DNA of 63,844 nt, the filler included, from Octopus bimaculoides (lineage: Eukaryota): NCBI RefSeq assembly GCF_001194135.2. It is 5 parts of 5 records of this genome, joined end to end, with 100 filler letters (N's around TTAATTAATTAA, not from the genome) between each part and the next. Parts side by side here need not be neighbours in the genome. Positions count along the whole stretch, not along the records: positions 1 to 22,673 come from NC_068981.1; positions 22,774 to 34,601 come from NC_068997.1; positions 34,702 to 48,111 come from NC_068986.1; positions 48,212 to 57,294 come from NC_068985.1; 1 more part is not named here. One strand, given 5' to 3'. Positions 16,262 through 57,025 of this stretch are shown in pieces (position 1 is the stretch's first letter; each line of letters starts with the position of its first letter). The position numbers were made by a program, and so were the translations under genes. The notes under the pieces are model-generated. The model saw nothing but the letters and a program-made list of their open reading frames with translations, was not told the origin of the DNA and made no database searches.

Positions 16262-16305
16262 GACACCTGAAGAAAGCTGGAGTGTACAACAGCTGAAATG
16301 TAGTG
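16262..16305 (+). ncRNA. Minimal type I hammerhead-like motif, family 1, diverged
   Basis: GACAC CUGAAGA A AGCUG(10 nt)CAGCU GAAA UGUA GUG. Confidence 0.55.
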
Positions 16306-17194
16306 AAAGTAACAATCAAAATGAGGACTAATATAAACACTATACATAATAATTATTGTTATATTCTTTGTTTAGTATGCAACCATTATTATTTGGCGTA
16401 TTATATCAACTAATAAATATTTTATTTTCAATCTTGTATATTACACATGATTTGATGTGCCGAGAGCAATATGTTGTAAATTTTAGTGTATCATTTAGGC
16501 TGTATCATTATATTTAGTGTATCATTTAGGCTGTATCAGTATTGTAACATCATACACAAGCAAACAACAACTAGGTTATTCTTTTATGCTACATGCAAAT
16601 AAATGAAAACAACCAAATGTCTGTGTACAGTTACAAAATTCTCCTAATGTCCTGATGTAGAAAGCTTAAATTAAGACCTTGCCTAACTATCCTGATGGAT
16701 TGAATGTGTCCAACTACTCCTCTCATTGGTCCATATTGTACTATTTCTATTGTAGCTGATTTACTTCAATAGTGTTCTCTCAGCAAACTTGTTTTGTTCA
16801 GTTATCCTATACATATATACATATGCACATACTCATGTATGTCTGTAGGTATATACATATGTATGTATGTGTGTATGTATATATGTATGTATGTATGTAT
16901 GTATGTACGTACATATGTAGATGTAGGTACCTACATACATACACATGTGCACACATGCAAATGTGCATAGATATATATATGCGTGTGTACATATGTACAT
17001 GGATAATGACATACATATGTACATATGTATGTACATATATACATACACACATACATTCATACGTGTAGATGCATGTATACAAACATACATGTATGTGTGT
17101 GTGTGCATGCATCTTTATATATCATTTTCTAGTTTAATATTATGCAAATTTACATTAATTGTTAATGTAATATTTTGTTTGATTTGTGTTCCAG

Positions 17195-17247
17195 TATAAA
17201 GCTAAATACCATGATAATGAACAAGATGAAATTTTACTAATTAAAAA
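17195..17247 (+). CDS. CCHCR1: CCHCR1-like exon (YKAKYHDNEQDEILLIK(K))
   Basis: gttccag| and |gtaagt; phase 0 to 2 is exactly what bridges 14735 to 17848. Confidence 0.8.
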
Positions 17248-17369
17248 GTAAGTATTTTAATATAATCAGTATTTTAATATAAATATTTTAATATAATAAG
17301 TGTATAAAGATGTTAGTTCTGATTAGACAGGCTTATGATCAAAGCATATTTTTTTCTTCAGACATTGAG

Positions 17370-17637
17370 ATCGTTGCCAGTGCCCCTGGACTGGCTTGTG
17401 CGGGTGGCACATAAAAGACACCATTTCGAGCGTGGCCGTTTTCGTGCGGGTGACACGTAAAAGCACCCACTACACTCTCTGAGTGGTTGGCGTTAGGAAG
17501 GGCATCCAGCTGTAGAAACTCTGCCCAATTAGATTGGAGCCTGGTGTTGCCATCCGGTTTCACCAGTCCTCAGTCAAATCGTCCAACCCATGCTAGCATG
17601 GAAAGCGGACGTTAAACGATGATGATGATGATGATTC
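17370..17637 (+). mobile_element. Young RTE-LINE 3' end, inverted relative to the 13868 and 20874 copies
   Basis: Near-identical reverse complement of about 20880-21145; (GAT)n tail at 17618-17637. Confidence 0.8.
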
Positions 17638-17847
17638 TAGTATGTTGTTCCTCTTTTTTTAAAGACAGTATGATTTGAGGATGATTTAGCTGCTCGTGTT
17701 TGAGGGTATTTATTGTATGCTGTACTATATTGTAACAATACAAAAAAATAACAATAATACAATAAAAATACAATTGTCAGTTAGATTTCATATAATAATA
17801 ACATGTCAAATAGGGATGAACTAAACAAATATTTCTTTGACTTTTAG

Positions 17848-17935
17848 ATGGAGAGAGAAATTATTTTCTGTTATGGTCCAGCATAAATCAGCAATAATTC
17901 GGCAAGAAAATGATATAGTGAAGTGGAAAGAGAAG
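17848..17935 (+). CDS. CCHCR1: CCHCR1-like exon (WREKLFSVMVQHKSAIIRQENDIVKWKEK)
   Basis: cttttag| and |gttggt, phase 2 to 0. WREKLFSVMVQ matches recalled CCHCR1 signature WREKVFALMVQ. Confidence 0.9.
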
Positions 17936-18590
17936 GTTGGTGACACTAATTTCTTTGATAGTTGTACTTGTTTGATGTTTGTATACTGTTTGAGAATGGA
18001 GTGTGGGTAGAGTAAACTTTAGGGAAAGTGAAAGAATGAGGTGTTGTACAGTGATAATTTATAAGACAGACCGTTTGGACAAGGTTGTATGTAGCATACA
18101 AGAGGAAAGAGCAAGCAAATATATAACCTGTATATGATGAGAATGGATGTGAAATTGGTTCATTTCAGGTGATTGATATAAAGTATGCAGAACAAAAGTA
18201 GATTGTTTAAAATGTAGAACACTGCTATAAAATTTGATGTTAGGAAATTTGAATGAACTGCAACGGTCTGATATAAAGATAACTAAAAGATAAGCAATAA
18301 TGGATTAACTAGATGATTAACCTTGTTTTTACCTTTCTATTTACAATATGTTTCAATCAATATGTTCTCTAATTGCCTTCAAGTAGACAACAAACATATC
18401 CATAATGCCAAATTTCCATAGGAGATACATTTTCAAAGAAATATAAACTTATTTCAGAAAGAATAGCTATATTAAACTGGAGTTTTAACTGGGCCTACAT
18501 GTTAGTTGCTTCTGTAGTTCTTTCTTACAGTAACATTATCCAGCATATTTTAGAGTTTCTGTTTTCATACAATAAATATTCATATACCCC

Positions 18591-18838
18591 GGGCATATGG
18601 CGTAGTGGTTAAGAGTGCGGGCTACTAACCCCAAGATTCCGAGTTCGATTCCAGGCAGTGACCTGAATAATAATAATAATAATAATAACAACATTGAAAA
18701 ATACCTTAGGAATGAGAACCCAGGTTCGAAATTTCCCCAATACACCTGATGAAGGCTGGAGGGTATATTAGCTGAAGCGTTGTGTTAACAACAAACAAGA
18801 TGAGGACAAATATCCCTCAAATGTAAATAATGTAAATA
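18591..18838 (+). mobile_element. tRNA-headed SINE-like element with (AAT)n, a hammerhead-like motif and an (AATGTAAAT)n tail
   Basis: A box TGGCGTAGTGG, B box GAGTTCGATTCC, no acceptor-stem pairing; same order of parts as the 40069-40387 copy. Confidence 0.8.
18741..18786 (+). ncRNA. Minimal type I hammerhead-like motif, family 1 (A15.1 changed to G)
   Basis: UACAC CUGAUGA A GGCUG(10 nt)UAGCU GAAG CGUU GUGUU. Confidence 0.55.
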
Positions 18839-20071
18839 TTCTTGTTTTAAATTGTCGTTTCTCCTCCTATCTGGAGTTTCTGGTGTTCTTCCATTTAGAT
18901 TGTTAGGTGTCATCCTGTTGCAATGGGATCGAACCTAAGACCACTTTGTTGTGAAATAAACTTCTTAACTACGTAATCATGCCTGGTTACATATGATTTA
19001 GATTCTGACTTTTTACAGTAGGGTAGATTCACAGTGTAGTTGAATGAATTTGATGATTTACCAATTGAAATGAAAGGTAGCTAGAAACATGCTGAGGTCT
19101 AGTCAGTGTTTATTTATTACAGTGCATGGAATCTTCTATAAGTATTTCTTTGACTCATCTATTTCTTGAATTGGTTTTATTCTAGTTAGTGAAATGTGGA
19201 ATAATGTTATGTTTGAATACTGACTCTCTATATAATCTTTCACTAAGTTTCAATCGTTTGAGCTTTTATGAAGTTCATGTTGGACGACTGCCTTATTGGT
19301 GCTTATTTTAATGCAGACTACGCCTTTCTTGTGAAGGGACATAACTCAATGACTCACTACCACAAGTTATTTTTCTTCGATGGCACTAATCTACACTTAC
19401 TTATATTTATACCTACATGATTGGCATTATGCACAAGTTTCGACTAGCAAATTTCACTCACACGATAATAATCAAGTGAGGCCATAGTAGAAGATACAGG
19501 CAATGGGATCGAATGTAAAAACACTTTATTACGAAATAAACTTCTCAGCTGCACAACCATGTCTGGCTACAAATTATTTAGATTCAGACTTAAACAATAG
19601 AGCAGACTCACAGAATAGTTGAAGGAGTTGGATGATTTACCAATTGAAATGAAAGGTGGTTAGAAACACATGCTGAGGTCCAGTCAATGTCTATTATTTG
19701 CAGTAATAATTAATCTCAGAATTATAAAGTTGAAGGTATTTAAACATGATATCCAATTTATGTAAAAATATTAAACTACTCACTCTACTTTGTTGATTCT
19801 TGGAAGAACATTCAGCTGGAAAAATATATTTTTGATACTCAGTAATAAATTAAGGCAGACAGCTGGCAGAAACATTAGCACACTAGTGAAATCCGTTTGT
19901 CTTCATGTTCTGAGTTCAAATTCCGCTGAGGTCAACTTTACCTTTAATCCTCTTAGGGTTGATGAAATTAGTTCCATTTGAGCACTGGGGTCAATGCAAT
20001 TGACTTACCCTGCCCTCAAAATTGCTGGCTTTGTGCCAAAATTTGGAACTAATGTTTAATAATGAATTATA

Positions 20072-22343: not shown

Positions 22344-22673
22344 GTGAGATTGTGGAAACTTCTATTGTTTATATTCTCTTTACTCTTTTACTCTTTTACT
22401 TGTTTCAGTCATTTGACTGTGGCCATGCTGGAGCACCGCCTTTAGTCGAGCAAATCAGCCCCAGGAATTATTCTTTGTAAGCCTAGTACTTATTCTATTG
22501 GTCTCTTTTGCCGAACTGCTAGTTACAGGGACGTAAACACACCAGCATCGGTTGTCAAGTGATGTTGGGGGGACAAACACAGACATACAAACATATACAC
22601 ACACATACATATATACATATATATATATACATATATATATATACATATATATATATACATATATATATATACA

Positions 22674-28617: not shown

Positions 28618-29448
28618 ATGTATGTATGTATTTTACCTCTTACTTGTTTGAGTCATTAGACTACGGCCATGCTGGGGCACTGCCTTGAAAAATTTATAGC
28701 CGAATGTATCGACCCCAGTACTTTGCTAAAAATTGGAGATGAAACACTCCAAAACCACAAAAGTTAACAGTATATTTTTCACAGACATGATTGGGAAAGA
28801 ATTAAGTAAAATAAGGATTGCGTCTTACCTCTGCGAATTTACAAGAAGGAAAGTCAGTTAACTTGATATCAAGATTTCGAATTTCGCGCCAAAAACACGC
28901 TAGCAACAAACTCTTATAATATATCACTTCAACAAATGCCTGTGTCCGTCTCAGTGCCCAAGGCGCACCGAGAAACAACGAACCGAGTGAATACAAATTT
29001 TATTATGAAAATAAAGAACGTTAATCCTCGCGAGATATATTAAAGTTAATGGCTGCAACATTAAGTATTCATTTGATTTGTTTTTTCTCAGTGCGCCTTG
29101 GGCACTGAGACGAACTGAGACAGGCATTGGTTGAAGTGACATATAAGAGTTTGTTATAAGAGTTCTGGTGGGAGGAGGTAATTGCTAGCAACTGATGGTC
29201 AGTCTGATTTGAATCTCTGTGGTTCCCTGACTGGTTGGTCCATCGCTGGAGGTCGGGCATTCTTAGGAAGACCGTATCATCCATATTTTTGTATATTACA
29301 TGTAGTTTGTAGCTCAAAATTTTCATTTTCTCTCATCAGGCTTCTGCGTAAACTTCCAAATCACATTTCACCTGCCTTTGTGGTGCCCACCTTTGTCCAA
29401 TACTTGTACGGCAAATATGAAATCATCATCATCGTCGTCATCATCATC

Positions 29449-29482
<34 letters not shown>

Positions 29483-31098
29483 NNNNNNNNNNNNNNNNNN
29501 NNNNNNNNNNNNNNNNNNNNNNNNNNNNNNNNNNNNNNNNNNNNNNNNNNNNNNNNNNNNNNNNNNNNNNNNNNNNNNNNNNNNNNNNNNNNNNNNNNNN
29601 NNNNNNNNNNNNNNNNNNNNNNNNNNNNNNNNNNNNNNNNNNNNNNNNNNNNNNNNNNNNNNNNNNNNNNNNNNNNNNNNNNNNNNNNNNNNNNNNNNNN
29701 NNNNNNNNNNNNNNNNNNNNNNNNNNNNNNNNNNNNNNNNNNNNNNNNNNNNNNNNNNNNNNNNNNNNNNNNNNNNNNNNNNNNNNNNNNNNNNNNNNNN
29801 NNNNNNNNNNNNNNNNNNNNNNNNNNNNNNNNNNNNNNNNNNNNNNNNNNNNNNNNNNNNNNNNNNNNNNNNNNNNNNNNNNNNNNNNNNNNNNNNNNNN
29901 NNNNNNNNNNNNNNNNNNNNNNNNNNNNNNNNNNNNNNNNNNNNNNNNNNNNNNNNNNNNNNNNNNNNNNNNNNNNNNNNNNNNNNNNNNNNNNNNNNNN
30001 NNNNNNNNNNNNNNNNNNNNNNNNNNNNNNNNNNNNNNNNNNNNNNNNNNNNNNNNNNNNNNNNNNNNNNNNNNNNNNNNNNNNNNNNNNNNNNNNNNNN
30101 NNNNNNNNNNNNNNNNNNNNNNNNNNNNNNNNNNNNNNNNNNNNNNNNNNNNNNNNNNNNNNNNNNNNNNNNNNNNNNNNNNNNNNNNNNNNNNNNNNNN
30201 NNNNNNNNNNNNNNNNNNNNNNNNNNNNNNNNNNNNNNNNNNNNNNNNNNNNNNNNNNNNNNNNNNNNNNNNNNNNNNNNNNNNNNNNNNNNNNNNNNNN
30301 NNNNNNNNNNNNNNNNNNNNNNNNNNNNNNNNNNNNNTATATATATATATATATATGTCTGCATGTATGTATGTATTTATGTGAGTGTGTCTTTGTATCT
30401 GTGTTTGTCCTCCACCATCGCTTGGCAACCGGCGTTGGTGTGTTTACATCCCCGTAAATTAGCGGTTCGGCAAAAGAGCCCGATAAAATAAGTACTAGGC
30501 TTACAAAGTCCTGGGGTTGATTTCCTCGACTAAAAGACTCTTTTAAAGGGGTGCTCCAGCATGGCCGCAATCAAATGACTGAAACAAGTAAAACAACAAA
30601 CTACAGTGTCTCTACACAGATTTTATCTATCAAATTCATTGCCAGGGGTAACTGCAGAAGACATCTGCCCGCGGACCTGCGAAACCACGTGATTACCAAG
30701 CGAGCTGCTTAACCACACAGCCATGTTTAAGCATATAATGCAGTACAGAAAATATAATTAGACACAAAACACTAATTGACAACACCGCAATTTTTCTCTT
30801 AGAACTACACATGAAAGAAAAAAAAAGAAAGGAATGAAGATAACTATGGAAGCTTTACTAATAACAAAATACAAGCCTGAATTAAACAGATCACATGTAA
30901 CAAAAATACATAATAGTATAATGAAATCTACTAGGATTTACCGATATATAATTTAAATACAATAGTGAGGTTTTATTGGTTATACAGTTATTCCCAAGAC
31001 TCTCTGTCAATTACCGCAAAATGCGCGGACCGCACACCATTACAGCAGTTTAATTTGAATATGTATGCTTTTGCATTTATGTATATATACATATTTAT

Positions 31099-33506: not shown

Positions 33507-34255
33507 TATATATATACATATAATAATAATAATATTAGGGATGAAAATCCAAAATTACAGGTAAAAACTCAATTAAAATCAATTTATTAAAAATTAGAAT
33601 TAAATTAAGTTTCACAGTATAGAATATATATAAATATATAGTTTTAGGGAAAAGAACCAAGGTTCATGAACTCATCGATGAAAATCCACTGTCACATATA
33701 GAAAAATTAATAATTAAAAACACAATAAATAAGTATAATATATATTTGTATTATATTATACTTATTTATTGTGCTTTTATTATTTTTTTCTATATGTGAC
33801 AGTGGATTTTCCTCGATGAGTTCATGAACCTTGGTTCTTTTCCCTAAAACTGTATATATATATATACATTTTTTCTACTCTAGGCACAAGGTCCGGAATT
33901 TGGGGGGAGGGGTGCCAGTCGATTAGATCGACCCCAGTACGCAACTGGTATTTAATTTATCGAACCCGAAAGGATGAAAGCAAAGTCGACCTGGCGGAAA
34001 GTCGACGATCAACGGAATAGCTTGCTCCTGAAATTAACGTGCAAGTAGCTGAGTACTCCATAGACAAGTGTACCATGGCAACTATAATTATCACTGGAAA
34101 ATACCCACACGGATTCTATGCATGGATATTTACTGTTGGAATGGAACTATACTTCAAGTACTGTTTCTTCTCTGTTCTTTCTTCTGTGCATCGCTCTCAC
34201 TTCTTACTACAAATCTCCTCTTATAGATGTAATTATCCATTCTTCTACTATTACC

Positions 34256-34304
34256 GTCTCCGATGAAGGGATACATTAAATTTTCCCTGAAACAGCTGTA
34301 AGAC
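34256..34304 (+). ncRNA. Minimal type I hammerhead-like motif, family 2
   Basis: GUCU CCGAUGA AGGGA(12 nt)UCCCU GAAAC AGCU GUA AGAC; all three helices can be drawn, core has U4 changed to C. Confidence 0.65.
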
Positions 34305-34701: not shown

Positions 34702-35151
34702 GGGTGAGGGGGAACGGGAGACGGGTGACGGTGGGGTAGGTGCGGGGCGAGAGAGTAGATGCACGGTCCACAGAAGTGCTCTGGCAAGGGCGGTGTGGAT
34801 AGTGGTGAGGGGATATCCACGTAAGATGAAGAGGCGAGCCATGAGTTGAGACTGAGTCTCAAAGTCATGGTTGTCACTGCAGAGCCCGCGTAGACAGAGG
34901 AATTGGGAATAGGGTATGGAGAGCTTGGTGTGTTTAGGGTGGGAGGAGGAGAAGCTGAGGTATGAGTGTGAGTCTGTGTGTTTGTAGTGGATGGAGTTTA
35001 GATGTTCATGGGAAAGTGAGGTCACACCGATACAGGAGTCAATATAACGACCGTATAGTTCAGGAGTAGGACCAGTGAAACTTGAGAATATTTGGGCCTC
35101 AACGTAGCCAACGAACAGGTTCGCATAGTTGGGGTCCATTTTCGTTCTACT
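34702..35151 (-). mobile_element. Penelope-like element reverse transcriptase fragment with an internal deletion
   Basis: TKMDPNYANLFVGYVE...RYIDSC...YKHTDSHSYLSFSSSHPKHTKLSIPYSQFLCLRGLCS...RGYP: Penelope-type RT motifs. Confidence 0.88.
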
Positions 35152-36019
35152 TGTTAACGTCATTAGTATATATATATATATATATATATNNNNNNNNNNN
35201 NNNNNNNNNNNNNNNNNNNNNNNNNNNNNNNNNNNNNNNNNNNNNNNNNNNNNNNNNNNNNNNNNNNNNNNNNNNNNNNNNNNNNNNNNNNNNNNNNNNN
35301 NNNNNNNNNNNNNNNNNNNNNNNNNNNNNNNNNNNNNNNNNNNNNNNNNNNNNNNNNNNNNNNNNNNNNNNNNNNNNNNNNNNNNNNNNNNNNNNNNNNN
35401 NNNNNNNNNNNNNNNNNNNNNNNNNNNNNNNNNNNNNNNNNNNNNNNNNNNNNNNNNNNNNNNNNNNNNNNNNNNNNNNNNNNNNNNNNNNNNNNNNNNN
35501 NNNNNNNNNNNNNNNNNNNNNNNNNNNNNNNNNNNNNNNNNNNNNNNNNNNNNNNNNNNNNNNNNNNNNNNNNNNNNNNNNNNNNNNNNNNNNNNNNNNN
35601 NNNNNAGCAAGCCACATAGAAACATCCCCTTCATCAGCTGCCACCATTAAAACTCCGGCGTTTCGAAGAATTAAGGCAGTACGTATCGTTAAAATGGTTC
35701 TTCCCACGAACACAAATTAAATTGGTTTCGTGGAGGGTAGTGGCGGACGGAAAACAAGACAGGAAAACGAAACGGTGAAATAAACAAACAAAAAGGCTGT
35801 ACAGCCAGACGTGAAGTGTGTATGTCTCGAACGCTGTGAAGCACGTACAGGAGGGGCAAAGAAGTACGTGCGAGCTTGGTGATTCCAAGAACGGAAAGAA
35901 ATAGCAGCCGCACACACATGACCAAGGCTGTATGAAGAGAAAGGGTAGCAGTATATATATATAAGATGATGTCGCTTTAATCGGAGTCTATATACAGATA
36001 TTATTATCATGATATATCG

Positions 36020-37552: not shown

Positions 37553-39473
37553 AAAACGAACACACGTGTGTTGCCTCTGCAAAATGTCAGAAGTAATGGA
37601 GATTAAATACGCTTTACACCGCTTAAAGTGCCAAAGGAGTAAATATAAACAGCTGAATACTTGTCAGTGATTGGTTGAAATTATCGAAATAAGACAATTT
37701 TTTACATGAAATAAATCCGAATACAAAAATATTTTTCTGTTCTATAACACAAAATAGATAAGTATACGAAGTTTGAAAGTCTTTCGGTACCAAAAACACT
37801 ACATAAAACATAAATGAAAACTGGTACCTCCGTTTTGAACAAGATCCCTGGGTCGATTTGTTCGAGTAAAGTCTGTGCTCCCGCATAGCTGCAGTCAGAT
37901 GACTGAAACAACTAAACGGATAAAAGAATATGTCATTTTAATCCGGAGCACTGCCAGGAATCTCTGCTACTTTTGTAGTCGCTCTTTCTCCGTAACTTCG
38001 GGTTTGTTTACAATTATTATATGTAGTACTCGACAGTTAAGTATCTATACATAAAATTTGATTGTAATTCATGGGTGAGCGTCAGGTTCAACTAGATGTA
38101 CCTGTAGCCATGTTACTGCTGATATGTTGGTTCGATTCTAGCCTGAGAATGCTCATCATTTTTTCAGCCAATTGTTTAGAAAATGTCGCTTTAATCAGAG
38201 TACATATTATTATTATTAATATTATTATTATTATGATACATTACTATATAGTTATTATTGTATAAAATAGACTTTCCTAGTCGCTCTTTCTCCGTAACTT
38301 ATCAAACCTCCGAGTTTGTTTACAAGTATTATATATATATGTGCGTGTGTGTGCGTGAATATGTGTCTATAAATAGATACATACACTTATGCATGCATAT
38401 ATGTATGTATACGCATGTATGTATATCCGTGTATATGTGTGTTTGTGCGTCTCTTTGTCCCCCACCATCGTTTGGCAACCGATGCAGGTGTGTTAACGTC
38501 CCTGTAATATATCGGTTCAGCAAAAGAGAACGATAGAATAAGTACCAGGCTTTAAAAAAATAAGTACTGGTGTCAGTTCATTCGAATAAAAAACATTTCC
38601 AAGCTGGTGCCCCAGAATGGCCGCAGTCTAATGACTGCAACAAGTAAACGATAGAAGATATACTTAGACACATACACACGCACGCGTGCATATATACACA
38701 CGTGCGCGCGCATGTTTTGTGTTCATTTGGTGCGAATCGTAACCGAGATTGAAATCAGGGGAGTGTACTGTTTAAACTACATTATTTAAAGTACATTAGT
38801 TAAAAATACGTTTATTGATTATTGAAGACGGTATATTACCAGTTTAAAGTAACTTAGCTGCTATTTCTAACAAATTGATCGAGAAAGTACATCTGATTAT
38901 TTGGTTGATTTTGATCCAGTGCTTAACCTACTTCGAAAAAGAAATATCGATTTCTTTCATTAAAACACATTTCTACCATAAATAAATGGAAGACCGGAAT
39001 GAGGTTAAGTTATGCATCTTGGAGCTGCCTACATTAAAGTTTATTGACCTTCACCGGGAAATTTAATCCAAGTTGTGAACTAGGTTCTGCAGCTCTGTAT
39101 AACACTTACGTATATAGACCACAGTATTATATACAACTCTTTATATATTACAGTATATAAACTGCAGTATATATAATTCTGTGTATACAGTGGCATATTT
39201 GTTCTTTGTACTTATATTTTCAATGTAGCCTTATTTTGGTGTTTTTCTAGGTTAGTAGCTCTGCGTGCGTGTGTGTGCATGAATATATGCGAGTGAGTGA
39301 TGTGAATGTGTGTGTATGTATGCATGTATGTATGTTTGTATGTATGTATGTATGTANNNNNNNNNNNNNNNNNNNNNNNNNNNNNNNNNNNNNNNNNNNN
39401 NNNNNNNNNNNNNNNNNNNNNNNNNNNNNNNNNNNNNNNNNNNNNNNNNNNNNNNNGTGGCTAATAAAGAAAC

Positions 39474-40068: not shown

Positions 40069-40243
40069 TACATTATTTACATTATTTACGATTGATGGAT
40101 ATTTGTCCTCATCTTGTTTGTTGCTAACACAACTTTTCGGCTGATGTACCCTCCAGCCTTCATCAGGTGTCTTGGGGAAATTTCGAACCTGGGTTCTCAT
40201 TTCGAAGGTATTTTTCCCTATCATAATAATAATAATAATAATG

Positions 40244-40280
<37 letters not shown>

Positions 40281-40566
40281 CAATAATAATAATAATAATA
40301 ATTATTATTATTTTTATTCAGGTCACTGTCTGGAATCGAACTCGGAATCTTGGGAGCCCGCGCTCTTAACCACTACGCCATATGCCCACGGGCATATGGC
40401 GTAGTGGTTAAGACCGCTGTCTACTGACCCCAACATTACGAGGGCATATGGCGTAGTGGTTAAGAGCGCTAGCTCCCAAGATTCCGAGTTCGATTCCAGG
40501 CAGTGACCTGAATAATGATAATAATAATAATGATAATAATAATAATAATGATAATAATAATAAGCG
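40069..40566. mobile_element. Same element: full minus copy 40069-40387, head-to-head with two tandem plus-strand head fragments (40390, 40442)
   Basis: Palindromic junction catatgccc-ac-gggcatatg and a repeated gggcatatggcgtagtggttaaga head. Confidence 0.8.
40126..40171 (-). ncRNA. Minimal type I hammerhead-like motif, family 1 (C15.2 changed to A)
   Basis: GACAC CUGAUGA A GGCUG(10 nt)CAGCC GAAA AGUU GUGUU. Confidence 0.6.
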
Positions 40567-41273
40567 ANNNNNNNNNNNNNNNNNNNNNNNNNNNNNNNNN
40601 NNNNNNNNNNNNNNNNNNNNNNNNNNNNNNNNNNNNNNNNNNNNNNNNNNNNNNNNNNNNNNNNNNNNNNNNNNNNNNNNNNNNNNNNNNNNNNNNNNNN
40701 NNNNNNNNNNNNNNNNNNNNNNNNNNNNNNNNNNNNNNNNNNNNNNNNNNNNNNNNNNNNNNNNNNNNNNATTTCCATTTATTTCAGACATGTGACAATG
40801 AAGTACCATGTTGGAAATAAATAAATAACTAAATAAATAATGAACGAATTTATCTGATAGCCCAATAGAGACAAAGTTTCTCAGTTGTGATGTTGAGTCT
40901 AACTGAAATATTCTTCCCTTTCTCATCACCCGTTTAGACCTCCTGTATCGGCGAGTAGTGACGGAGATCTTTCTGAACCACGTTATATCAACCCTAGTGT
41001 ATCTCAGGATTCGGTTTTGTCTCTAACTCACTTATTTATATACTTCAATGATTTACTTTTATCGTGTAATTTCGAAGTTAATGCAGACGATAGCATGTCG
41101 GACTGATTGGTTCGTATATGTCTCTGGTGTTGTGCTGTGTTGAAGACTTGATACTTTACTCTTGTCGACGACTCAGTCCTTCGAGTTATCAAACTCTGCA
41201 CGAACAATTTGTAGTTAATGAATGTTTTGCTAGCTTGCATCATTTTATGATCTCCGACCATTATAGCAGGATC

Positions 41274-43611: not shown

Positions 43612-44045
43612 AGGTAGCGAGCTGGCAGAATCGTTAGTAGACCAGGTAAAATGCTTAGCGGTATTTCTTACATCTTAACGTTCTGAGTTCAAATTCTGCC
43701 GAGGTCGACTTTGCCTTTCATCCCTTTCAGGGGTAGATGAAATAAGTACCAGTTCAGAACCGCGGTCGTTGTATTCGATTATAGCCCCTTTCCGAAAATT
43801 GCCGGCCTTGTGCCAAAATTTGAAACTAATAATCTTTTCTACTCTAGGCACAAGGCCCAAAGTTTTGGGGGAGGGGAAGTCAGTCAATTAGACCGACCCC
43901 AGTACGAAACTGGTACTTAATTTACCGATTTATAAAAGATGAAACGCGAAGTCGACCTGGGCGGAATTTGAACTCAGAACGTAAAGACAGACGAAATACA
44001 GTTTAGTATTTCGCCCGGCGTGCTAACGATTCTGCCAGCTCGCCG
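43612..44045. mobile_element. Two family B SINEs, tail to tail. Other copies near 10240-10635, 19850-20050, 33860-33995, 45780-47150
   Basis: Head gagctggcagaatcgttag...gagttcaaattc and core gtcgactttgcctttcatcc in opposite orientations. Confidence 0.8.
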
Positions 44046-45380: not shown

Positions 45381-45779
45381 CGCCTTGTTATTACTTATTC
45401 ATATAAATATTAATCTCGTCTTTGCTTCCTGCTCTCGATAGAAGATAGACAAATAGTCCAAGAGGAATCAAAAGACAAAACTAATCGAGACAATTAGGTA
45501 CTATCGACTGGGACCAGTCTCTTAAATGGGTCGTTAAATTACTTTTATTTATTATGTTTTATTTTATTTATTGTTGTATTTGAACTAGAGAATAATAGAA
45601 TTGTTAGTTACAGGTATCTAATTACTGACTGTAGGCCTTAATCTTGTACGTGTTGTGTTGTTTTTTATTGTGTAGGGTTTGTGCTGTGTGCGAAGATTGT
45701 TCTACTTGAGTTATTATATTGAATCAGGAGTTATTTAACTGAATTGATAGTGTCTTGCACAAGAAGTAAGCTGATCTTT

Positions 45780-47150
45780 TCCTACTCTAGGCACAAGGCC
45801 CAGGAGGTGGGGCCAGTCGATTAGATCGACCTCCAGTAAGCAACTGGCACTTAATTTATCGAACCCGAAAGGATGAAAGGCAAAGTCGACCTCGGCGGAA
45901 TTTGAACTCAGAACGTAAAGACAAACGAAATACTTATTTCTTTATTGCCCACAAGGGGCTAAGCATAGAGGGAACAAACAAGAACAGACGAACGGATTAA
46001 GTCGATTACATCGACCCCAGTGCGTAACTGGTACCTAATTTATCGACCCCGAAAGGATGAAAGGCAAAGTCGACCTCGGCGGAATTTGAACTCAGAACGT
46101 AACGGCAGACGAAATACCGCTAAGCATTTTGCCCGGCGTGCTAACGTTTCTGCCAGCTCGGCGTTACCTGTTACAGTAGAAGTAACCCGGCCTTATTTGA
46201 ACTTCAGGGCATGTGATCTACCTATGTGCCAAAAGACAAACGAAATACCGCTAAGCATTCCGCCCGGCGTGCTAACGTTTCTTATTTCTTTATTGCCCAT
46301 AAGGGGCTAAACATAGAGGGGGCAAACAAGGACAGACAAAAGGACTAAGTCGATTACATCGACCCCAGTGCGTAACTGGTACTTAATTTATCGACCCCGA
46401 AAGGATGACAGGCAAAGTCGACGGAATTTGAACTCAGAACGTAAAGACAGACGAAATACCGCGAAGCATTTCGCCCGGCGTGCTAACGTTTCTGCCAGCC
46501 CGCCACCTTAGAAGTAGGCTGATTCTAACAGAGCCATTTTGTGGGTTGTATGTAGTGTTTTGAGCCCTGGCATGGCCTCTATGTTTCTTTACATATTATT
46601 ATTATGGTAGAATCGCTAGCACGTCGGGCGAAAAGCTTAGCGGCATTTCGTCCGTCTTTATATTGTGAGTTCAAATTCCAACGCGGTCGACTTTGCTTTT
46701 CATTGTCTCGGGGTCAATAAATTAAGTATGAATGAAAAACTGGGGTCAATGTAATCGACTAGTCTTCTCCCCCAAAATTTCAGGCCTTGTGCCTTTAGTA
46801 GAAAAGATTATTATTATCGAGCAAACTTTCAGTGAGATGCAGTGTCTAATGAAATGAAGCTGTTGCTTAGCTGATATTTTTCTCAAGCAACAAGTAACGA
46901 CTTTCCTCAGAGTTTTGGTCGCCTGGCTCAAGCTTTCGCATTATCATTTAAGGCTGTGAGCTGGCTGAAGCGTTAGTACATCGGATAAAATGCTAAGCAA
47001 CCTTTCGTCTGTCTTTATGTTTTGCGTTCAAATTCTGCCGAGGGTCGACTTTGCCTTTCGTAGGAGATGAAATCAGTACTAGTTGAGCACTGGAGTCGAT
47101 GTAATCGTCTTATCTCCTCCCCCCAAATTTCAGGCCTTGTGCTTATAGTA
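45780..47150. mobile_element. Cluster of five or more family B SINE copies, tandem and head to head
   Basis: Repeated gaaaggatgaaaggcaaagtcgacctcggcggaatttgaactcagaacg and its reverse complement. Confidence 0.8.
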
Positions 47151-47374
47151 CAAAGTGATGTCGTTAGTTTTAGTGTTTGTAAGTAGAGTAAGGATTGTTT
47201 CAGTAATGAGATCAAAATGAAATTTATCTCCCTTACTAGTCTAAAACCTCAAAATAATACTGATTTCAAATTTTGGCAGAAGGCCAGCAATTTCGGCTTT
47301 GATTCACAAATACTGTCTTTTTTTCTCACCGCTTCGTCATTTATGACATATATATATATATAAACACACTAAGC

Positions 47375-49949: not shown

Positions 49950-52646
49950 CATATATACATATCTATATCTAAGCACACATATTTAGAGGAAGATGATGAT
50001 GATAGTTATACATACATGCATACATAGATACATACATACACACACACACATACACACATATATGTACATACATAATACAAACTCGCACACACACACACAC
50101 ACACACTTAATCACTCACTCACTCACTCACTCAATTATTAGACACGTGCGCTCGTGCTAATCCACATACCGATCGCTCAATGACACTCATAGACCACAAA
50201 GCTTCTAAGTATGGAAGGTGTGGTTTATACAACTGTCCAGCTAGCAATAACACTAGCTGATTGGATGTCTCATTGAAAAGGTAGTAGCTACCATTGAGTG
50301 AGCAGTTTTGCTACAAGCTGATATGGTCTTGAGAGTGATGAACTAATAATAGGATATATTTAAGCTTTTAAATGCTTCAGTCACTCGACTGCGGCCATGC
50401 TAGAGCCATGCTTACGCCAAGGGTAGGCGACTTCATTGAATATGAAGATCATATATGAGTGGTTGATTGCAAGTAGGGTAGACACATGGAGGAAACTAAA
50501 TAATTTAATATAGATAGCTTTATGCTATCGCAAATTTCCAAGTGTTCCTCGTAGTTAAATATAGTACAGCAGAATATCAAAGTATAAACATGGAAAATAA
50601 TTGTAGAATTCCTTTTCCATATTTTCGCAATTGCTGCCGAGGTCCACCTTGTCTTTCAACGTTTTGGGGATCGATAAAACAAGTAGCAGTCGAGCACTGG
50701 GGTCGATGTAACCCACTTGTCACGCCCCTCGAAATTGCTGGTCTTGTGCCAAAATTAGAAAGAATGTCCGCATTTGAAGGGTTGTAGAATGGCAAAATCT
50801 CCGGTTTCAGACAAAATACCTTGCAGCAAGTCCACGCGGAGCAGTCTGGCAGTCTATTTACATTTTTATTTTTTTCCCTAGAGAACGAGCTCAACAGATA
50901 TTCGCGGTCTCGAACCAATGCACTGGCAGAAAACTCATCTTGTAATCCCTGTTTTGCAGGATTTTTTCCAAATATTTACGCTCTGACTTCAAATCCAACC
51001 GAGATCTCTCAACTTCATTTCCTATCCTTTTCATGTACTGACGAAGCACCTTAAGAATGTTCAGTAATAATATTTATTAGTGTATTTCCATTCCTGCTTT
51101 CTTGAAAGTGTATTATGATTATTTATGATTTGCGAAACTAATTCATAGAATAATGAAAAAGTTTTTATCATCACATCTACGTAACAAAATGGCTGAACAA
51201 TTTTTATTTTAATAACAAAGCGTTTATATCGGTTTTTCTCATTGCCGTAGGCTGGGGTTGCTGTGAGAATTGAAGAGGACCGATTCAATTTATTTTTTAC
51301 TCGTTTCAGTCATTGGATTGCGGCCATCCTGGACACCGCCTTTAAGGGTTTAATCGAACAAATCGACCTCAGTACTTGATTGCATTCTAAGTCCGGTACT
51401 TATCCTATCGGTTTCTTCTTACCGACCCGCTAAGTTACAAAGACGTGAACAAACCCAATCCGGTTGTCAAACGGTGGGCGCAGGACAAACACACACATAG
51501 ATGTTCATACATATATATTATATACGACGGGCTTCTTTCAGTTTCCGTCTACCAAATCCACTCACAAGACTTTGGTAAGGCTATAGTAGAAGACACTTGC
51601 CTAAGGTGACTGAACCCTGAACTATGTAGTTGGAAAACAAATTTCTTACTGTACAGCCACGATCATCAATAATAATAAAAGCGAAATTCTGTTTGTCTGT
51701 CTGGGACCCCTGTATCTCAGTCAACGTTTGCTCTACATAGACGTATTATACCTTTCTGGAATCAAGATGATCCTGGGATTGAGTATCTGCCCTTTATTTG
51801 GTTCTTGAACATCCAGCATTGAGATCTGATTTAAAAGCATTTGGGTTGCTGTTTCTAGCAGGTAAAGATTGGCTGATTAACGCCATTTTGGTGGCGTTTG
51901 TCAGATGACGTCAGAGATCAAGCGGGGAGATAAATGACATTAGCTTCGTTAATTTTACGTCGAGATAATAACTTGAGACAAATTGGCCAACAGTTAGGAT
52001 TCTAACTGGGGCTGGAACAATAAAATGATTGCATTACAGAATTAATTCTCATCCGTCCTTAATCTTTGATCAAACACCACCGGAGCATATAAACATTACA
52101 GACGTATTATAGTCATGCTATTTGGCTCTCTTTAGTTTGAGACTGAAGGCCTATTTAACCCTCCACAAGAGCTAGCGTAAAAGTTCGCACGGAGTACGGC
52201 TTTTAAGTTAGTGTTTGATAAAGTTAAGATACCATTAAGCTTATAAACTTGTCAAGCACAGTGGTGAAGAAAGAATTCTTATGACGTGAAAATTCTATTT
52301 CGTTGTCTTTTCATTAATGAAGAGGTAGAAAAGTAATAACGGAAGAAAGAAAAAAATCACTAATATTTCTTTGAGGGTCCCTGATATGTGACAGTCTGAG
52401 AATTACTGGTTTGGATAATCGCTGAGTTTTAGTGTTACTGTCGAAGGACGCGTTCCAACATCAAAAGCAAATTAGATAGATAATAAATAAATAAATAAAC
52501 AGGCGCATGGTTGTGTGGTAAAAAGTTTGTTTTCAAACCACATAGTTCCGGGTTCAGTGTCACTGTGCGGCACTTTGGCCAAATGTCTTGTACTACAACA
52601 GCAGGCCGACCATTTGGTAAACAGCAACTGAAAGTAGCCCGTCTAT

Positions 52647-52684: not shown

Positions 52685-52913
52685 ATATAAATAATAATAA
52701 TAAGGGTGATAAATTGGATATTAATCTAATTAACACCAATTTCAAACTAGTGGCCTAGCATAAAGAAAATTCAGAACATTTATATTACATACATGTGAGA
52801 AGGAATGACCACTAAGTGGACATCTTTTACGCTAGAAAGCGACCGTCAACGTTTACTAGCGAAAAGGATGTTCACTTAGTGGTCATCCCTTCTCACATGT
52901 ATCTATCTATCTA

Positions 52914-52978
<65 letters not shown>

Positions 52979-53396: not shown

Positions 53397-53495
53397 GCAT
53401 GCATGTATTATGTATGCATGTATGTGTGTGTATATGTATTATGTATGTATGTATGTAGGCTGAAAAAGGCGATGTTAAAGTTTAACATACATACA

Positions 53496-53527
<32 letters not shown>

Positions 53528-53558
53528 GATATATATTCATACATATTTATATACAAAT

Positions 53559-53605
<47 letters not shown>

Positions 53606-54938
53606 TACAAATATACATATATATATATATATATATNNNNNNNNNNNNNNNNNNNNNNNNNNNNNNNNNNNNNNNNNNNNNNNNNNNNNNNNNNNNNNNN
53701 NNNNNNNNNNNNNNNNNNNNNNNNNNNNNNNNNNNNNNNNNNNNNNNNNNNNNNNNNNNNNNNNNNNNNNNNNNNNNNNNNNNNNNNNNNNNNNNNNNNN
53801 NNNNNNNNNNNNNNNNNNNNNNNNNNNNNNNNNNNNNNNNNNNNNNNNNNNNNNNNNNNNNNNNNNNNNNNNNNNNNNNNNNNNNNNNNNNNNNNNNNNN
53901 NNNNNNNNNNNNNNNNNNNNNNNNNNNNNNNNNNNNNNNNNNNNNNNNNNNNNNNNNNNNNNNNNNNNNNNNNNNNNNNNNNNNNNNNNNNNNNNNNNNN
54001 NNNNNNNNNNNNNNNNNNNNNNNNNNNNNNNNNNNNNNNNNNNNNNNNNNNNNNNNNNNNNNNNNNNNNNNNNNNNNNNNNNNNNNNNNNNNNNNNNNNN
54101 NNNNNNNNNNNNNNNNNNNNNNNNNNNNNNNNNNNNNNNNNNNNNNNNNNNNNNNNNNNNNNNNNNNNNNNNNNNNNNNNNNNNNNNNNNNNNNNNNNNN
54201 NNNNNNNNNNNNNNNNNNNNNNNNNNNNNNNNNNNNNNNNNNNNNNNNNNNNNNNNNNNNNNNNNNNNNNNNNNNNNNNNNNNNNNNNNNNNNNNNNNNN
54301 NNNNNNNNNNNNNNNNNNNNNNNNNNNNNNNNNNNNNNNNNNNNNNNNNNNNNNNNNNNNNNNNNNNNNNNNNNNNNNNNNNNNNNNNNNNNNNNNNNNN
54401 NNNNNNNNNNNNNNNNNNNNNNNNNNNNNNNNNNNNNNNNNNNNNNNNNNNNNNNNNNNNNNNNNNNNNNNNNNNNNNNNNNNNNNNNNNNNNNNNNNNN
54501 NNNNNNNNNNNNNNNNNNNNNNNNNNNNNNNNNNNNNNNNNNNNNNNNNNNNNNNNNNNNNNNNNNNNNNNNTATATATATGTATGTATGTATGTCAATC
54601 AGTTTCATTTCTGTATTTCTTGTCCATAGAGAAAGAGCCGGATTTTAACATAGATTCAAGGCTCCTTCATTGGAACTTTTATCAACATCATCTAGGTATT
54701 TGTGCATATGTGTGTGTGTGCAGTATTTGGTGTTAGTGTATGCGCAGATTTGTATGTTTGTTTTATGGATGCGTTTTTATGTCTAGATGCATGCATATGT
54801 ATTTATGTGCTAAATTTTGGGAAAGTTTTACATATCTTTACAGTTCCATTGATGGCTTGAATCTGTAGTCTTCTAATCAGCCTTTTTCTTTCAGGTTTTG
54901 AGGTATGTATGTATGTATGTATGTTTGTATGTATGTAT

Positions 54939-54977
54939 GTCCGACGATGACCTAACTGGCCGAAACTTCGAAGTCAC
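54939..54977 (+). ncRNA. Hammerhead-like motif, family 3, copy 1
   Basis: GU CCGACGA U GACC UAACU GGCC GAAAC UUCGAA GUC AC. Confidence 0.5.
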
Positions 54978-55482
54978 TGTCAATAAAATTCTTGTTTAAG
55001 AATAATAAATTTGTACTCTACAATATAATAGAGAAATCCATCAGATTAATATATAGTTTTAATTATAACGGAACATATACACACACACTAACACAGACAC
55101 ACACACACTAACACACACACAAACACACACACACACTCACACACACACACACACATAAATACACACACACATAAATACACACACACACCAGTATCAGTTT
55201 GAAGCCAACTGATTTTCTATGTACTATCTATTATTATTGAGACCCCTTCGAACTCTTCAAACTAATGACAAGGCTCACTGTGAAATACTAGATTAATTAT
55301 TCCGTTTTCTCCAGACATCCATCACTTCACGCGCCAGATTCGACTTAAATAATCTGATTTCATGATTCTATGCATTTACTACAAAATAACAATAAGTGAT
55401 ACAAGCAAATTATTTACTTATATCTAAGTTAAGAAGGAAAATGTGTAAATTCTCTTAAGTTTGAATTCAATTAAATAAAACC

Positions 55483-55910
55483 CAACACTGGATTAACCAC
55501 TAAGCAAAATAAGCACGTGCTTAGGGTATCAAGGGAAGGAGGGGGACACCACAGAGTTGGTAAATGGTTTACGGCACAAAAGAAATCACTTTAAACTTGC
55601 TAAAATAATATTCGGGATGCCTTTGTCTCTACTAAGTATAGATGCAGATGTGTTACCTAAGATTAATTTTGAGGATCTGATCAAAGACTTCGTAATTCAA
55701 AAAAGTAGGAGGAAACTTTTCAAATATAAATAAAGTGGAAGTATACAAAAATAAGCATTATTTTCCCTCTTACTGTTTTGTTTCGTTTTGAAAAATAAAA
55801 ATATATTTTTATGGTTTGTTATTGTTTATATTTTGAATTACATAATGTTTTATGAGGGCACCAAAACCTTTTAAGTGTTTAGGGCCTTGATGGATCTTAA
55901 TCCGACCCTG
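55483..55910 (+). mobile_element. Internally deleted hAT transposon keeping the transposase C-terminus (55623-55733)
   Basis: LSLLSIDADVLPKINFEDLIKDFVIQKSRRKLF resembles the hAT dimerisation-domain end. Imperfect TIRs containing GGATTAA; candidate TSD ataaaacc / taaaaacc. Confidence 0.7.
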
Positions 55911-56785
55911 TAAAAACCTATTATTATTTAGTAGTTGTACCGTGGTGAAGTCGGTGCCACATAATCTTTGTGTAGGTCTTTTATCTTGGTACTCAAAGTA
56001 CAGGTTTATTGTTTTCTTTAAAGGCTGATCCAGTCTCGATATATAATGTGTGTTAGATACATCAATTTTATATATTGTAATCTAGGTTTTTATGTTACAA
56101 TGTTTATATTTACATACTCTTTTACTCTTTTACTTGTTTCAGTCATTTGACTGCGGCAATGCTGGAGCACCGCCTTTAGTGGAGCAAATCGACCCCAGGA
56201 CTTATTCTTTGTAAGCCTAGTACTTATTCTATCGGTCTCTTTAGCCGAACCGCTAAGTTACGGGAACGTAAACACACCACCATCGGTTGTCAAGCGATGT
56301 TGAGGGGACAAACACAGACACACAAATATATATACACACATACATACATATATATATATACGCATATATACGACAGGCTTCTTTCAGTTTCCTCTACCAA
56401 ATCTACTCACAAGTCTTTGGTCGGCCCGAGGCTATAGTAGAAGACACATGCCCAAGGTGCCACGCAGTGGGAATGAACCCGAAACCATGTGGTTGGTAAG
56501 CAAGCTACTTACCACACAGCCACTCCTGCGCTCCATGGCTACGGAGCTAAGTTTACTTTGCAATCGCGTAGTTCCGATATCGAACCACTGTATGGCATTT
56601 TCGGAAACTATTTTCTACTATAGTCTCAGATTCGTCAATACTTTAGGAGTGAAATTTAGTTTGGAACCAGTTTTAAATGAGAAGTGGGATAATCTCAAAC
56701 AATCAACAATTATTTAGAATTAATATGCCATTATAAAAAATGCAATCTGTTTTGATTTTTGTTTTCTATTCTGGAGAAAGAACAA

Positions 56786-56831
56786 CTGCTAATACCTGTT
56801 TCTGCCACAATAGGCGTCATCAGTACTGCAG
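56786..56831 (-). ncRNA. Hammerhead-like motif, family 4
   Basis: CUGCAGUA CUGAUGA C GCC UAUUGU GGC A GAAAC AG GUA UUAGCAG. Confidence 0.5.
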
Positions 56832-56981
56832 ATGTCTTACATTGACTCCAGCTAGGCATAAAAGTCCTAAGTAACACAATCCTTGAAATTATCATTTAAT
56901 GTTATAAATTACGTTTTGGGAGGCGAATGTGAAGCAGTCAATGGTTTGGAAGGTGGAAATGGAACCGTGGTGGGGGATATC

Positions 56982-57025
56982 GTCAGATGAGGACTTAACT
57001 GACCGACACTTCGAAGTCACTCTCC
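56982..57025 (+). ncRNA. Hammerhead-like motif, family 3, copy 2, decayed
   Basis: GU CAGAUGA G GACU UAACU GACC GACAC UUCGAA GUC ACUCUCC; downstream flank homologous to copy 1. Confidence 0.4.

Follow-up and report, generated by a model that had tools for sequence, protein, structure and literature searches.

A 63,844-nt stretch of Octopus bimaculoides DNA (assembly GCF_001194135.2; hereafter the window) is likely to contain 3′ ends of Penelope-like elements (PLEs) bearing minimal hammerhead motifs, together with two copies of a short interspersed element (SINE) that has a tRNA-like head and appears to have been copied by PLEs (Table 1). The wider reading, to which we give about even odds, is that this SINE, termed family 1a, parasitises PLEs and not LINEs, has spread through several related species in a copy number on the order of 10^5, and carries a dormant hammerhead as a tag read by the PLE protein.

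Table 1. Features located in the window; positions count along the whole stretch, and defects are those scored by a defect-counting hammerhead descriptor
Feature	Position	Strand	Detail
Inverted partner of family 1b	16062..16170	-	decayed hammerhead; first part of the 3′ extension that family 1a reads show
Family 1b, 5′-truncated PLE 3′ end	16171..16351	+	
ORF C-terminal motif, GTxxPxGxN type	16183-16215	+	stop codon 16222-16224
Hammerhead, family 1b	16262-16305	+	1 defect
Left copy of 9-bp direct repeat	18573..18581	+	flanks unit; probable target-site duplication
Short inverted (fold-back) copy of element 5′ end	18581..18589	-	8/12 positions pair around 18590
tRNA-like head, family 1a	18591..18665	+	depth rise at ~18590 in 4/4 runs
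Pol III A-box-like and B-box-like motifs	18598-18609; 18643-18651	+	33 nt between
(AAT)n linker, head to tail	18666..18692	+	from sequence and spanning reads
Minimal type I hammerhead, family 1a	18741..18786	+	1 core defect; read majority restores motif
Core of 18741 hammerhead	18746-18752; 18774-18777	+	predicted cut after 18781
PLE-type 3′ tail	18787..18838	+	main 3′ end of family 1a at 18833-18838
Right copy of 9-bp direct repeat	18833-18841		overlaps element end
Family 2 type I hammerhead	34256..34304	+	0 defects; 8-nt palindromic helix III; GUA site
Dead RT fragment of C-terminal GIY-YIG PLE	34702..35160	-	Neptune/Nematis-type relatives
Second family 1a element	40074..40389	-	head, long (AAT)n, hammerhead, tail
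Hammerhead of second element	40126-40171	-	1 defect, in palindrome
Inverted head copies	40390..40567	+	one shortened and one whole, followed by (AAT)n as far as gap
Family 3 hammerhead-like motif	54939..54977	+	2 defects; 10-nt palindrome; GUC site; weak stems I and II
Core blocks	56786..56830	-	helix III and cut site lacking
Decayed family 3 copy	56982..57025	+	two core changes; fails descriptor

An earlier note on this DNA had placed minimal, dimer-type hammerheads of the PLE kind at seven loci (16262, 18741, 34256, 40126, 54939, 56786, and 56982), all in type I order and in about four unrelated families. All seven were present at those positions and the nature of the motifs had been judged rightly, but only five fit a minimal type I hammerhead; 56982 is a decayed copy of 54939 and 56786 is unsupported, leaving three families. 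The descriptor, whose helix III lengths (4–10) were set after the motifs had been seen, found neither 56982 nor 56786 (minus strand) at up to 3 defects. The null was formed by 1857 dinucleotide shuffles in 1-kb blocks. With ≤1 defect, 4 motifs were observed against a shuffle mean of 0.026, and equally complete folds, the check proposed in that note, reached this number in none of the 1857 shuffles, these four best motifs not being independent because three belong to one family. With ≤2 defects, 5 were observed against a mean of 0.50, a count reached by 1 of the 1857 shuffles.

A covariance model trained solely on 13 hammerheads of PLE loci elsewhere ranked 40126, 18741, and 34256 first to third among its 17 matches, with rough E-values of 0.001, 0.003, and 0.026, respectively, and gave 54939 an E-value of 2.6; 16262, 56982, and 56786 were absent from the 17. 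A chance origin of the motifs as folds in repeat-rich DNA is highly improbable overall and was refuted for families 1 and 2. Such folds do arise at ≤3 defects, where shuffles averaged 3.65 per window against 9 observed and 25 of the 1857 reached that count, and no hammerhead (or tRNA) model of Rfam was among 150 listed of 208 window matches, nor any hammerhead in Rfam scans of the 40126, 18741, and 34256 regions; chance is plausible for 56786. It does not account for four best motifs that no shuffle equalled, for a read majority in family 1a that amounts to a perfect motif, or for the top three places in a model trained elsewhere. A pattern scan for the family 1 motif gave 0 matches in metagenome contigs and 0 in viral contigs.

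The core CYGANGA...GAAA...UH with stems I and II was found as it stands at 34256 and by read majority in family 1a, with one defect at 16262, and weakly at 54939, while 56786 and 56982 failed. The bulge between 9 and 10.1 and the pair G10.1-C11.1 were present in family 1a; 16262 has the bulge with A-U in place of G10.1-C11.1, and at 34256 the best pairing has A-U and no bulge. A self-complementary stem III, proposed for three families, holds over 8 nt in family 2 and 10 nt in family 3 (duplex energies of −11.1 and −12.5 kcal/mol, from one and two copies, respectively). For family 1, ACGU accompanied by an intact GAAA was found in 0 of the 3 window copies and is the majority state only among reads.

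Family 1a (18741 and 40126) is a unit of approximately 250 nt, in which a tRNA-like head with A-box-like and B-box-like motifs is followed by (AAT)n and a PLE-type hammerhead tail, and the head was joined to the tail in both family 1a tails of the window. The two copies are 92% identical along 143 nt, with 88% identity in the head, and the tail starts (18702/40210) lie in the same order and orientation 21 kb apart along the stretch; the bases just after the AAT run differ between them. Box-like motifs were spaced 27–33 nt apart in all three whole heads, and no run of four T occurred within 18591–18838. Neither ARAGORN (default, relaxed to 90 and to 80) nor Rfam gave a tRNA in the head; at 70 and 60, ARAGORN made a scatter of calls, of which two lay over heads, and the identities assigned were unstable. 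The 9-bp repeat, one AT-rich case at the 18741 copy alone, brackets head and tail together. The 40126 copy reaches a gap in the flanking-repeat test. The inverted head was the loose-end consensus before 18590–18592 in all four runs and was present in both window copies, and the inverted heads of the second locus stand head-to-head with its element, 31 of 35 positions pairing around 40388–40389. Another repeat family of the window (43617–44043 and 46000–46760) likewise has inverted pairs standing head-to-head, so such pairs are not specific to PLE use.

The relationship to PLEs was indicated by family 1b at 16262, which is 78–83% identical to family 1a over 76 nt of hammerhead and tail; a segment of approximately 40 nt before the hammerhead is common to both family 1a copies and missing from this PLE end. 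A PLE C-terminal motif lies 84–90 nt upstream of the 16262 core, and in related PLE loci an ACGU-type motif lies 102–138 nt past the ORF end on the ORF strand. With the preset profile, 76 of 42,670 null stretches scored as high (8 loci tested), and window-wide this profile put the C-terminal motif second, at 6.8 versus a shuffled-best mean of 8.5; with an 11-column profile, picked after the match had been seen, 0 of 39,960 did. In its 14-column form the profile of PLE ORF ends gave a negative result for 7 of the 8 loci, and no PLE ORF end was found upstream of the motifs other than 16262. Short tblastn matches near other motifs had E-values like that at 16183 and were rejected, being mostly on the wrong strand and in no case the C-terminal motif. 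At the sequence level, the reading of 16262 as a truncated copy of an autonomous PLE is supported. A weak 15-bp match hints that both arms of 16062–16351 may once have carried the extension. No full-length partner PLE for family 1a was found.

The earlier note had taken all motifs for several non-autonomous families. This does not apply to 16262, which carries a PLE ORF end, and for 34256 and 54939/56982 solo PLE ends are the simplest reading; family 1a is the only family with evidence of non-autonomy.

In public data, 20 of 24 listed runs contained the stretch, under 5 organism labels, and none of the listed runs containing it was labelled RNA. Depth on family 1a was approximately 10^5 times that of the flank, with sharp boundaries at ~18590 and ~18838, and the summed contig depth was 5 × 10^4 to 2 × 10^5 times the flank, a sum that is not equal to copy number. 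Majority letters, taken from X22 reads and X17 and X15 contigs, were G at 18741 (95–98%), C at 18769 (96–99%), C at 18773 (72–84%), and A at 18777 (89–99%); they produce stems I and II of 5 bp, the ACGU palindrome, and a base bulged out ahead of G10.1-C11.1, which are traits listed in PMC4209133. Variation occurs at the free core position N7 (C in 6–22%; A at 16262), and two CpG sites are decayed in many copies (21–23% of X22 reads at each). Tail depth exceeded head depth by about 1.05–3 fold, so many tails lack a head.

The linker was spanned by 623 and 416 RNA reads, which may stem from few loci, and by 4 of 16 contig pieces listed. A subset of family 1a reads continues past the main 3′ end into a common extension of at least 30 nt, clear in RNA loose ends and not in DNA loose ends. 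No pile-up of ends at the predicted cut site was detected in two RNA runs, the libraries being fragmented and apparently unstranded and about 6 in 100 being read. Higher depth 3′ of the cut site was considered as a trace of cleaved templates and rejected, the loose ends at 18779–18781 being diverged hammerhead and not unique flank. RNA reads were equal on both strands, which is uninformative on the promoter. Among the 15 joints listed of 96, one joined tail to head, in one DNA contig with 0 RNA reads, and no RNA back-joint, a sign of circles, was present in these libraries ill-suited to circles. A head-to-tail hammerhead tandem array of the retrozyme type was not found in the window. Family 1a looks heavily A-to-I edited.

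Three other readings were weighed. It is unlikely that family 1a is not one element and that an ordinary tRNA SINE time and again received PLE ends in its (AAT)n tail through an endonuclease favouring ATT and microsatellites. Cutting at ATT by a PLE, the microsatellite bias of some PLEs, the excess of tail over head, and the differing bases after the AAT run would all fit such insertions; they leave unexplained why order, orientation, and tail start are alike at two loci, why one 9-bp repeat encloses head and tail, why the fold-back falls at the first base of the head throughout the family, and why the pre-hammerhead segment occurs in both family 1a copies and not in 1b. Somewhat more doubtful is that an ordinary LINE mobilised family 1a as a SINE, a PLE end having once been captured, with the hammerhead as a passenger. 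The SINE partners named in the available parts of the literature are all LINEs, inverted pairs occur in other window repeats, and CpG decay affects the motif in many copies. Against this stand a 3′ end that is itself the PLE-shared part, with no poly(A) tail, and a second, longer 3′ end common to the inverted arm of a PLE end; the core also persists in both subfamilies, where the free N7 has changed and stem II shows one two-sided change.

Less probable still, in our view, are several families of retrozyme-like elements with RNA that would cleave itself as dimers, form circles, and serve PLE RT as template. The palindromic helix III in three families would suit such a cycle, retrozymes are reported to be PLE-derived (bioRxiv 10.64898/2026.07.22.740005), and Pol III transcription combined with a hammerhead has been described for schistosome SINE-like repeats; yet the window is devoid of head-to-tail hammerhead repeats, the single tail-to-head joint among the 15 listed of 96 comes from a DNA contig and no RNA read, ends do not pile up at the cut site, and 16262 has ORF sequence.

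In the preferred reading of a SINE copied by PLEs, RNA polymerase III would transcribe the element from its A and B boxes, and a PLE protein would bind the hammerhead-bearing 3′ region and nick AT-rich DNA at ATT. Reverse transcription might begin at one of two sites, giving copies with and without the extension, and at the far end the cDNA may fold back or switch template to leave the inverted head. Inverted 5′ copies and a one-sided tail of 30–40 bp are PLE signatures, and some PLEs are biased to microsatellites (Craig 2021); for an anole PLE, ATT cutting and two RT start sites were shown, together with a protein-assisted hammerhead that insertion does not require and an absence of RNA-seq ends from the cut site (PMC11167929). 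With a 4-nt palindrome replacing helix III, the ribozyme would be unable to fold alone and would cut solely as a dimer or with protein help, so that the promoter would seldom be severed from the tail; the hammerhead may be kept mainly as part of the recognition signal.

Dispersed minimal hammerheads from PLEs are known and, in the available text of PMC4209133, most are described as solo ends. These share with the present motifs the core, in family 1a the bulge before G10.1-C11.1, the short helix I, and the palindromic helix III, and as here form several unrelated consensus families per genome, mostly as dispersed single copies; the same text fully covers 16262, 34256, and 54939/56982. It describes no tRNA-headed SINE-like carrier and does not name cephalopods. 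Poseidon of the green anole (Frangieh et al. 2024, PMC11167929) likewise has a hammerhead near the 3′ boundary, two 3′ ends as a tail signature, AT-rich targets, and no RNA-seq ends at the cut site; it is autonomous with its own RT-endonuclease, whereas family 1a lacks an ORF of this kind and carries a Pol III-like head. The SINE-like hammerhead repeats of Schistosoma, as reviewed in PMC6765202, are also short non-coding retroposons, with a type I hammerhead downstream of a Pol III promoter (a putative one in family 1a), but are often tandem, cleave in vitro, and lose the promoter as single copies; family 1a, unlike these, is dispersed, keeps head and hammerhead together, and has a minimal motif and PLE-type insertion marks. 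Animal non-LTR retrozymes, in the accessible parts of PMC7229834 and bioRxiv 10.64898/2026.07.22.740005, resemble family 1a in being non-coding, in their type I hammerhead, and in a proposed PLE origin and dependence; they are defined there as tandem repeats giving circular RNAs, with no tRNA head described, whereas neither tandem array nor circle was seen for family 1a.

Family 1a may be an octopus SINE already named. tRNA-derived SINEs of octopus were reportedly treated by Ohshima and Okada in 1994. The octopus elements OR1 and OR2 are called CORE-SINEs in the available text of PMC4824008 and PMC4758252. Octopus tRNA SINEs share with family 1a the tRNA-like head and very high abundance within a repeat landscape of cephalopod type, and the portions of their descriptions at hand mention no hammerhead or PLE partner. 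The pairing of a tRNA-like head with a PLE-type hammerhead end was not found in the accessible parts of the literature searched.

That one animal genome holds several minimal hammerhead families is already known. If the preferred reading is true, a PLE-dependent SINE would add a third retroelement class to the partners of SINEs, for which the literature, in its available parts, names LINEs only. It would also bear on the open question of the role of PLE hammerheads: a freely cutting ribozyme would sever a SINE promoter (PMC5786205), and retention of the hammerhead in family 1a favours a role as a structure recognised by protein, in which cleavage is gated. Statistics on PLE target choice, tail formation, and 5′ inversion could be drawn from tens of thousands of natural insertions, and abundant head-to-head copies would make double-stranded RNA.

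The PLE RT fragment mentioned in the earlier note proved real. It has an altered catalytic motif, misses 40 residues, and stands isolated between assembly gaps; Pfam gave no match on the fragment itself, and a profile of 13 PLE proteins revealed nothing else in the window that was clearly PLE coding sequence. Among relatives, a C-terminal GIY-YIG was found in 5 of 8, the five where Pfam detected it, and the Cys-rich CX2-5CxxC linker in 32 of 40 long ones, the fragment being too short to show either. A tie between the fragment and the 34256 motif was rejected on orientation, the RT strand being opposite to the motif, an arrangement with a downstream hammerhead that was seen at 1 of 31 related PLE loci; the two are probably unlinked. 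Family 2 occurs as a single copy within the window, and 34256 is probably a solo PLE end.

The 56786 locus has both core blocks and could form a long stem I, with no UH at the junction; as a fourth hammerhead family it was rejected, failing both the descriptor and the PLE-trained model and having no palindrome. The 54939 and 56982 motifs are homologous over approximately 140 nt at approximately 73% identity and are most likely solo ends of another PLE family. Both have a stem II mismatch in either register and just 2 bp of stem I beside the core, and the 54939 motif adjoins a (TATG)n run.

The window consists of animal DNA, rich in AT and in microsatellites, and its assembly gaps account for 7904 N. 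The seven hammerhead loci of the earlier note, named by start, were all found at their positions. Type I hammerheads were scored by counting defects over the core, stem II (four pairs), stem I (three pairs) and helix III, the latter as a palindrome of 4–10 nt, a length range fixed after the motifs were seen. Locus 34256 (family 2) had 0 defects, 16262, 18741 and 40126 (minus strand) 1 apiece, and 54939 had 2; 56982 and 56786 gave no match to this descriptor even with 3 defects allowed. In 1857 block-wise dinucleotide shuffles, matches with at most 1 defect averaged 0.026 and no shuffle reached the four observed, which thus exceed chance. At 3 defects, 9 were observed versus 3.65 by chance (25 of 1857 shuffles).

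For an independent test, 80 loci encoding relatives of the Penelope-like element (PLE) reverse-transcriptase (RT) fragment were fetched; from their 32 motif matches, 13 varied hammerheads were chosen, in which 92% of cells were paired and 5 of 8 pairs had two-sided changes. With the resulting model, 40126, 18741 and 34256 ranked 1–3 of 17 window matches and 54939 scored E 2.6, with 16262, 56982 and 56786 not matched. Self-comparison of the window grouped the motifs into three: 16262/18741/40126, 34256, and 54939/56982 (family 3). The earlier observation was therefore partly confirmed, with three of about four proposed families supported, and its interpretation was supported in part. Locus 56786, considered as a further family, has no window relative, no helix III and no cut site. 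Family 3 is the weakest of those accepted: its 10-nt palindrome is perfect and its site is GUC, but each of its two copies has a mismatched pair in stem II. Several hammerhead families at such density are an ordinary PLE footprint: several dispersed minimal families per animal genome are described, most of them derived from truncated PLEs and only weakly active as dimers (PMC4209133), and 235 Rfam hammerhead-1 loci are given for giant squid (PMC6962438).

The 18741 and 40126 elements (family 1a) share the motif, a head with A-box-like and B-box-like motifs, an (AAT)n run and a tail of approximately 140 nt. Positions 18560–18860 were present in 20 of the 24 listed runs, under five organism labels. 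Reads of two raw RNA runs, together with two sets of contigs (probably DNA, their kind not being on record), were aligned to 18500–18900 at 80% likeness. Depth rose at approximately 18590 and fell at approximately 18838, and summed contig depth was 5 × 10^4 to 2 × 10^5 times that of the flank, a ratio that should not be read as a copy number. Family 1a is composite in build and very abundant. Head and tail were bridged by 623 and 416 RNA reads in the two runs and in 4 of 16 contig pieces listed. At four sites the 18741 copy deviates from a perfect motif, and there the majority letter (72–99%; X22, X17, X15) makes it perfect. In this majority motif, stems I and II are 5 bp each, an A is bulged, G10.1-C11.1 is present, helix III is the palindrome ACGU and the cut site is GUU, a site shared by 2 of the 32 PLE-locus motif matches. 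The free core position N7 varied among reads (40 of 101 variant rows listed), and CpG sites were decayed in about one fifth of reads. Between 18590 and 18838, A>G places numbered 21–24 in the two RNA runs versus 3 in the contig sets, and T>C places 17–20 versus 4–5; at 18732, T>C reached 23% in RNA versus 0.09% in contigs. This comparison is between different individuals, and contigs lose rare variants; the RNA excess is likely A-to-I editing on both element strands.

Family 1b opens with a reading frame matching the PLE C-terminal motif, which was found in 22 of 82 RT relatives; the stop lies at 16222–16224 and the hammerhead core 43 nt past it. Within the 250 nt preceding each of 8 hammerhead motifs, to which this test was limited, the pre-fixed profile match was equalled by 76 of 42670 null stretches; over the whole window that profile was not significant. 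A post hoc 11-column profile was equalled by 0 of 39960, family 1b then being the top window match. On these sequence grounds, family 1b is taken as a truncated PLE. Families 1a and 1b are alike from approximately 10 nt before the hammerhead through the tail (78–83% over 76 nt) and unlike upstream. Such a pattern is that of a 3′ end shared by a SINE and its putative partner class, and is not proof of the actual partner.

Loose ends before 18590–18592 carried an inverted head copy in all four runs or sets, the majority in X23 (one of these) agreeing with the inverted head over approximately 24 letters; inverted copies in the window span approximately 9 bp at 18581–18589 and more than 60 bp from 40390 onward. 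The majority of copies stop at 18833–18838. Past this end, 1630 and 1401 RNA reads continue into a common extension, 30 nt or more in length (agreement 0.72–0.73), which DNA loose ends did not show as a majority. The extension starts with a block that complements a conserved tail block (18797–18806 and 16070–16085), so that long copies could form a 3′ hairpin. PLE insertions are described with inverted 5′ copies and a one-sided 30–40 bp tail (Craig et al. 2021). Head-to-head pairs also occur in another repeat family of the window, which counts against PLE specificity of the inverted copies.

Family 1a fits the anole PLE mechanism, as a parasite of PLE. In the portions cited of that study (PMC11167929), the purified protein cuts at ATT, reverse transcription begins at two internal sites, accounting for the tail, and the protein requires an RNA region overlapping the hammerhead; it assists cleavage, which is dispensable for insertion, and RNA-seq reads lacked ends at the cut site. 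The 18741 unit as a whole is flanked by a 9-bp direct repeat containing ATT. We consider it probable that family 1a is mobilised in this way: Pol III would transcribe its RNA, PLE protein would recognise the hammerhead-bearing end, and insertion would produce the observed marks. A freely cutting ribozyme would detach a SINE head (PMC5786205), a loss that a partner-requiring motif would spare family 1a; no end pile-up was seen in the two RNA runs, a weak test.

Nested insertion into the (AAT)n of a SINE is unlikely, and a LINE-driven SINE carrying the hammerhead as passenger is slightly less likely again. Retrozyme-type circles are doubtful to a somewhat greater degree. Retrozymes are reported as tandem PLE-derived elements (PMC7229834, PMC7761336, bioRxiv 10.64898/2026.07.22.740005), with cleavage in 1 of 9 dimers in the last. 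Chance motifs, given the shuffles, are very improbable. Family 1a, with its tRNA-like head and hammerhead tail, offers a testable link to PLE biology. Schistosome SINE-like repeats combine Pol III and a hammerhead (PMC6765202), butterflies have short non-autonomous Penelope elements, mentioned without detail (PMC6685494), and octopus surveys report SINEs and Penelope, ribozymes going unmentioned in the parts cited (PMC13282606, PMC8967140). No description of a tRNA-headed PLE-dependent SINE, or of hammerheads in octopus SINEs, was found in the partial texts searched. Octopus OR1 and OR2 are classed as CORE-SINEs (PMC4824008, PMC4758252). Family 1a may already carry a name, for instance among the octopus SINEs of 1994 or in Repbase/Dfam.

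The RT fragment lacks 40 residues and has an altered catalytic motif; of 580 candidates, 82 were related to it at E ≤ 0.001. A C-terminal endonuclease in 5 of 8 relatives scanned (those where Pfam detected one) and a Cys-rich linker in 32 of 40 long relatives point to a Neptune or Nematis type. Hammerheads (n = 31) in related loci lay on the ORF strand downstream (15) or upstream (3), or on the opposite strand upstream (12) or downstream (1). Motif 34256 is on the opposite strand, downstream and across a gap, and is thus probably a separate insertion. The half motif, upstream on the same strand, is better placed and could be the RT element's own repeat end. In six loci from host-associated metagenomes (L001, L007, L022, L042, L072 and L073), hammerheads on either strand surround a single PLE, the textbook picture of an inverted PLE insertion.

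Coordinates of elements and other repeats in the window
Feature	Position	Strand	Remark
Family 1b	16171–16351
Inverted partner of family 1b	16062–16170		bears start of the extension seen in family 1a reads
Second B-box-like stretch	18720–18738		directly before family 1a hammerhead; missing from family 1b
RT fragment	34702–35160	minus
Half hammerhead-like motif	35606–35637	minus	first half; cut by assembly gap
Abundant SINE-like family	43617–44043, 45774–47154, 33875–33999, 19848–20053
Palindrome	33625–33866		242 bp, 92% identity
Other palindromic junctions	14174–14292, 28905–29155, 52786–52905, 58940–59122
Open frame	4206–5024	minus	273 residues
Dispersed repeat family	2–398, 22366–22611, 30369–30593, 38417–38658, 51299–51660, 56101–56530		approximately 400 bp, at least 6 copies
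Inverted pairs	17366–17617/20895–21146, 25105–25206/25381–25482		99.6–100% identity, next to gaps

The SINE-like family often forms head-to-head inverted pairs of 5′-truncated copies, and the 242-bp palindrome is MITE-like or a fold-back. The open frame gave no Pfam match; by eye, it resembles a Ty3/Gypsy protease-to-RT fragment. The near-identical inverted pairs are either very recent or assembly artefacts.
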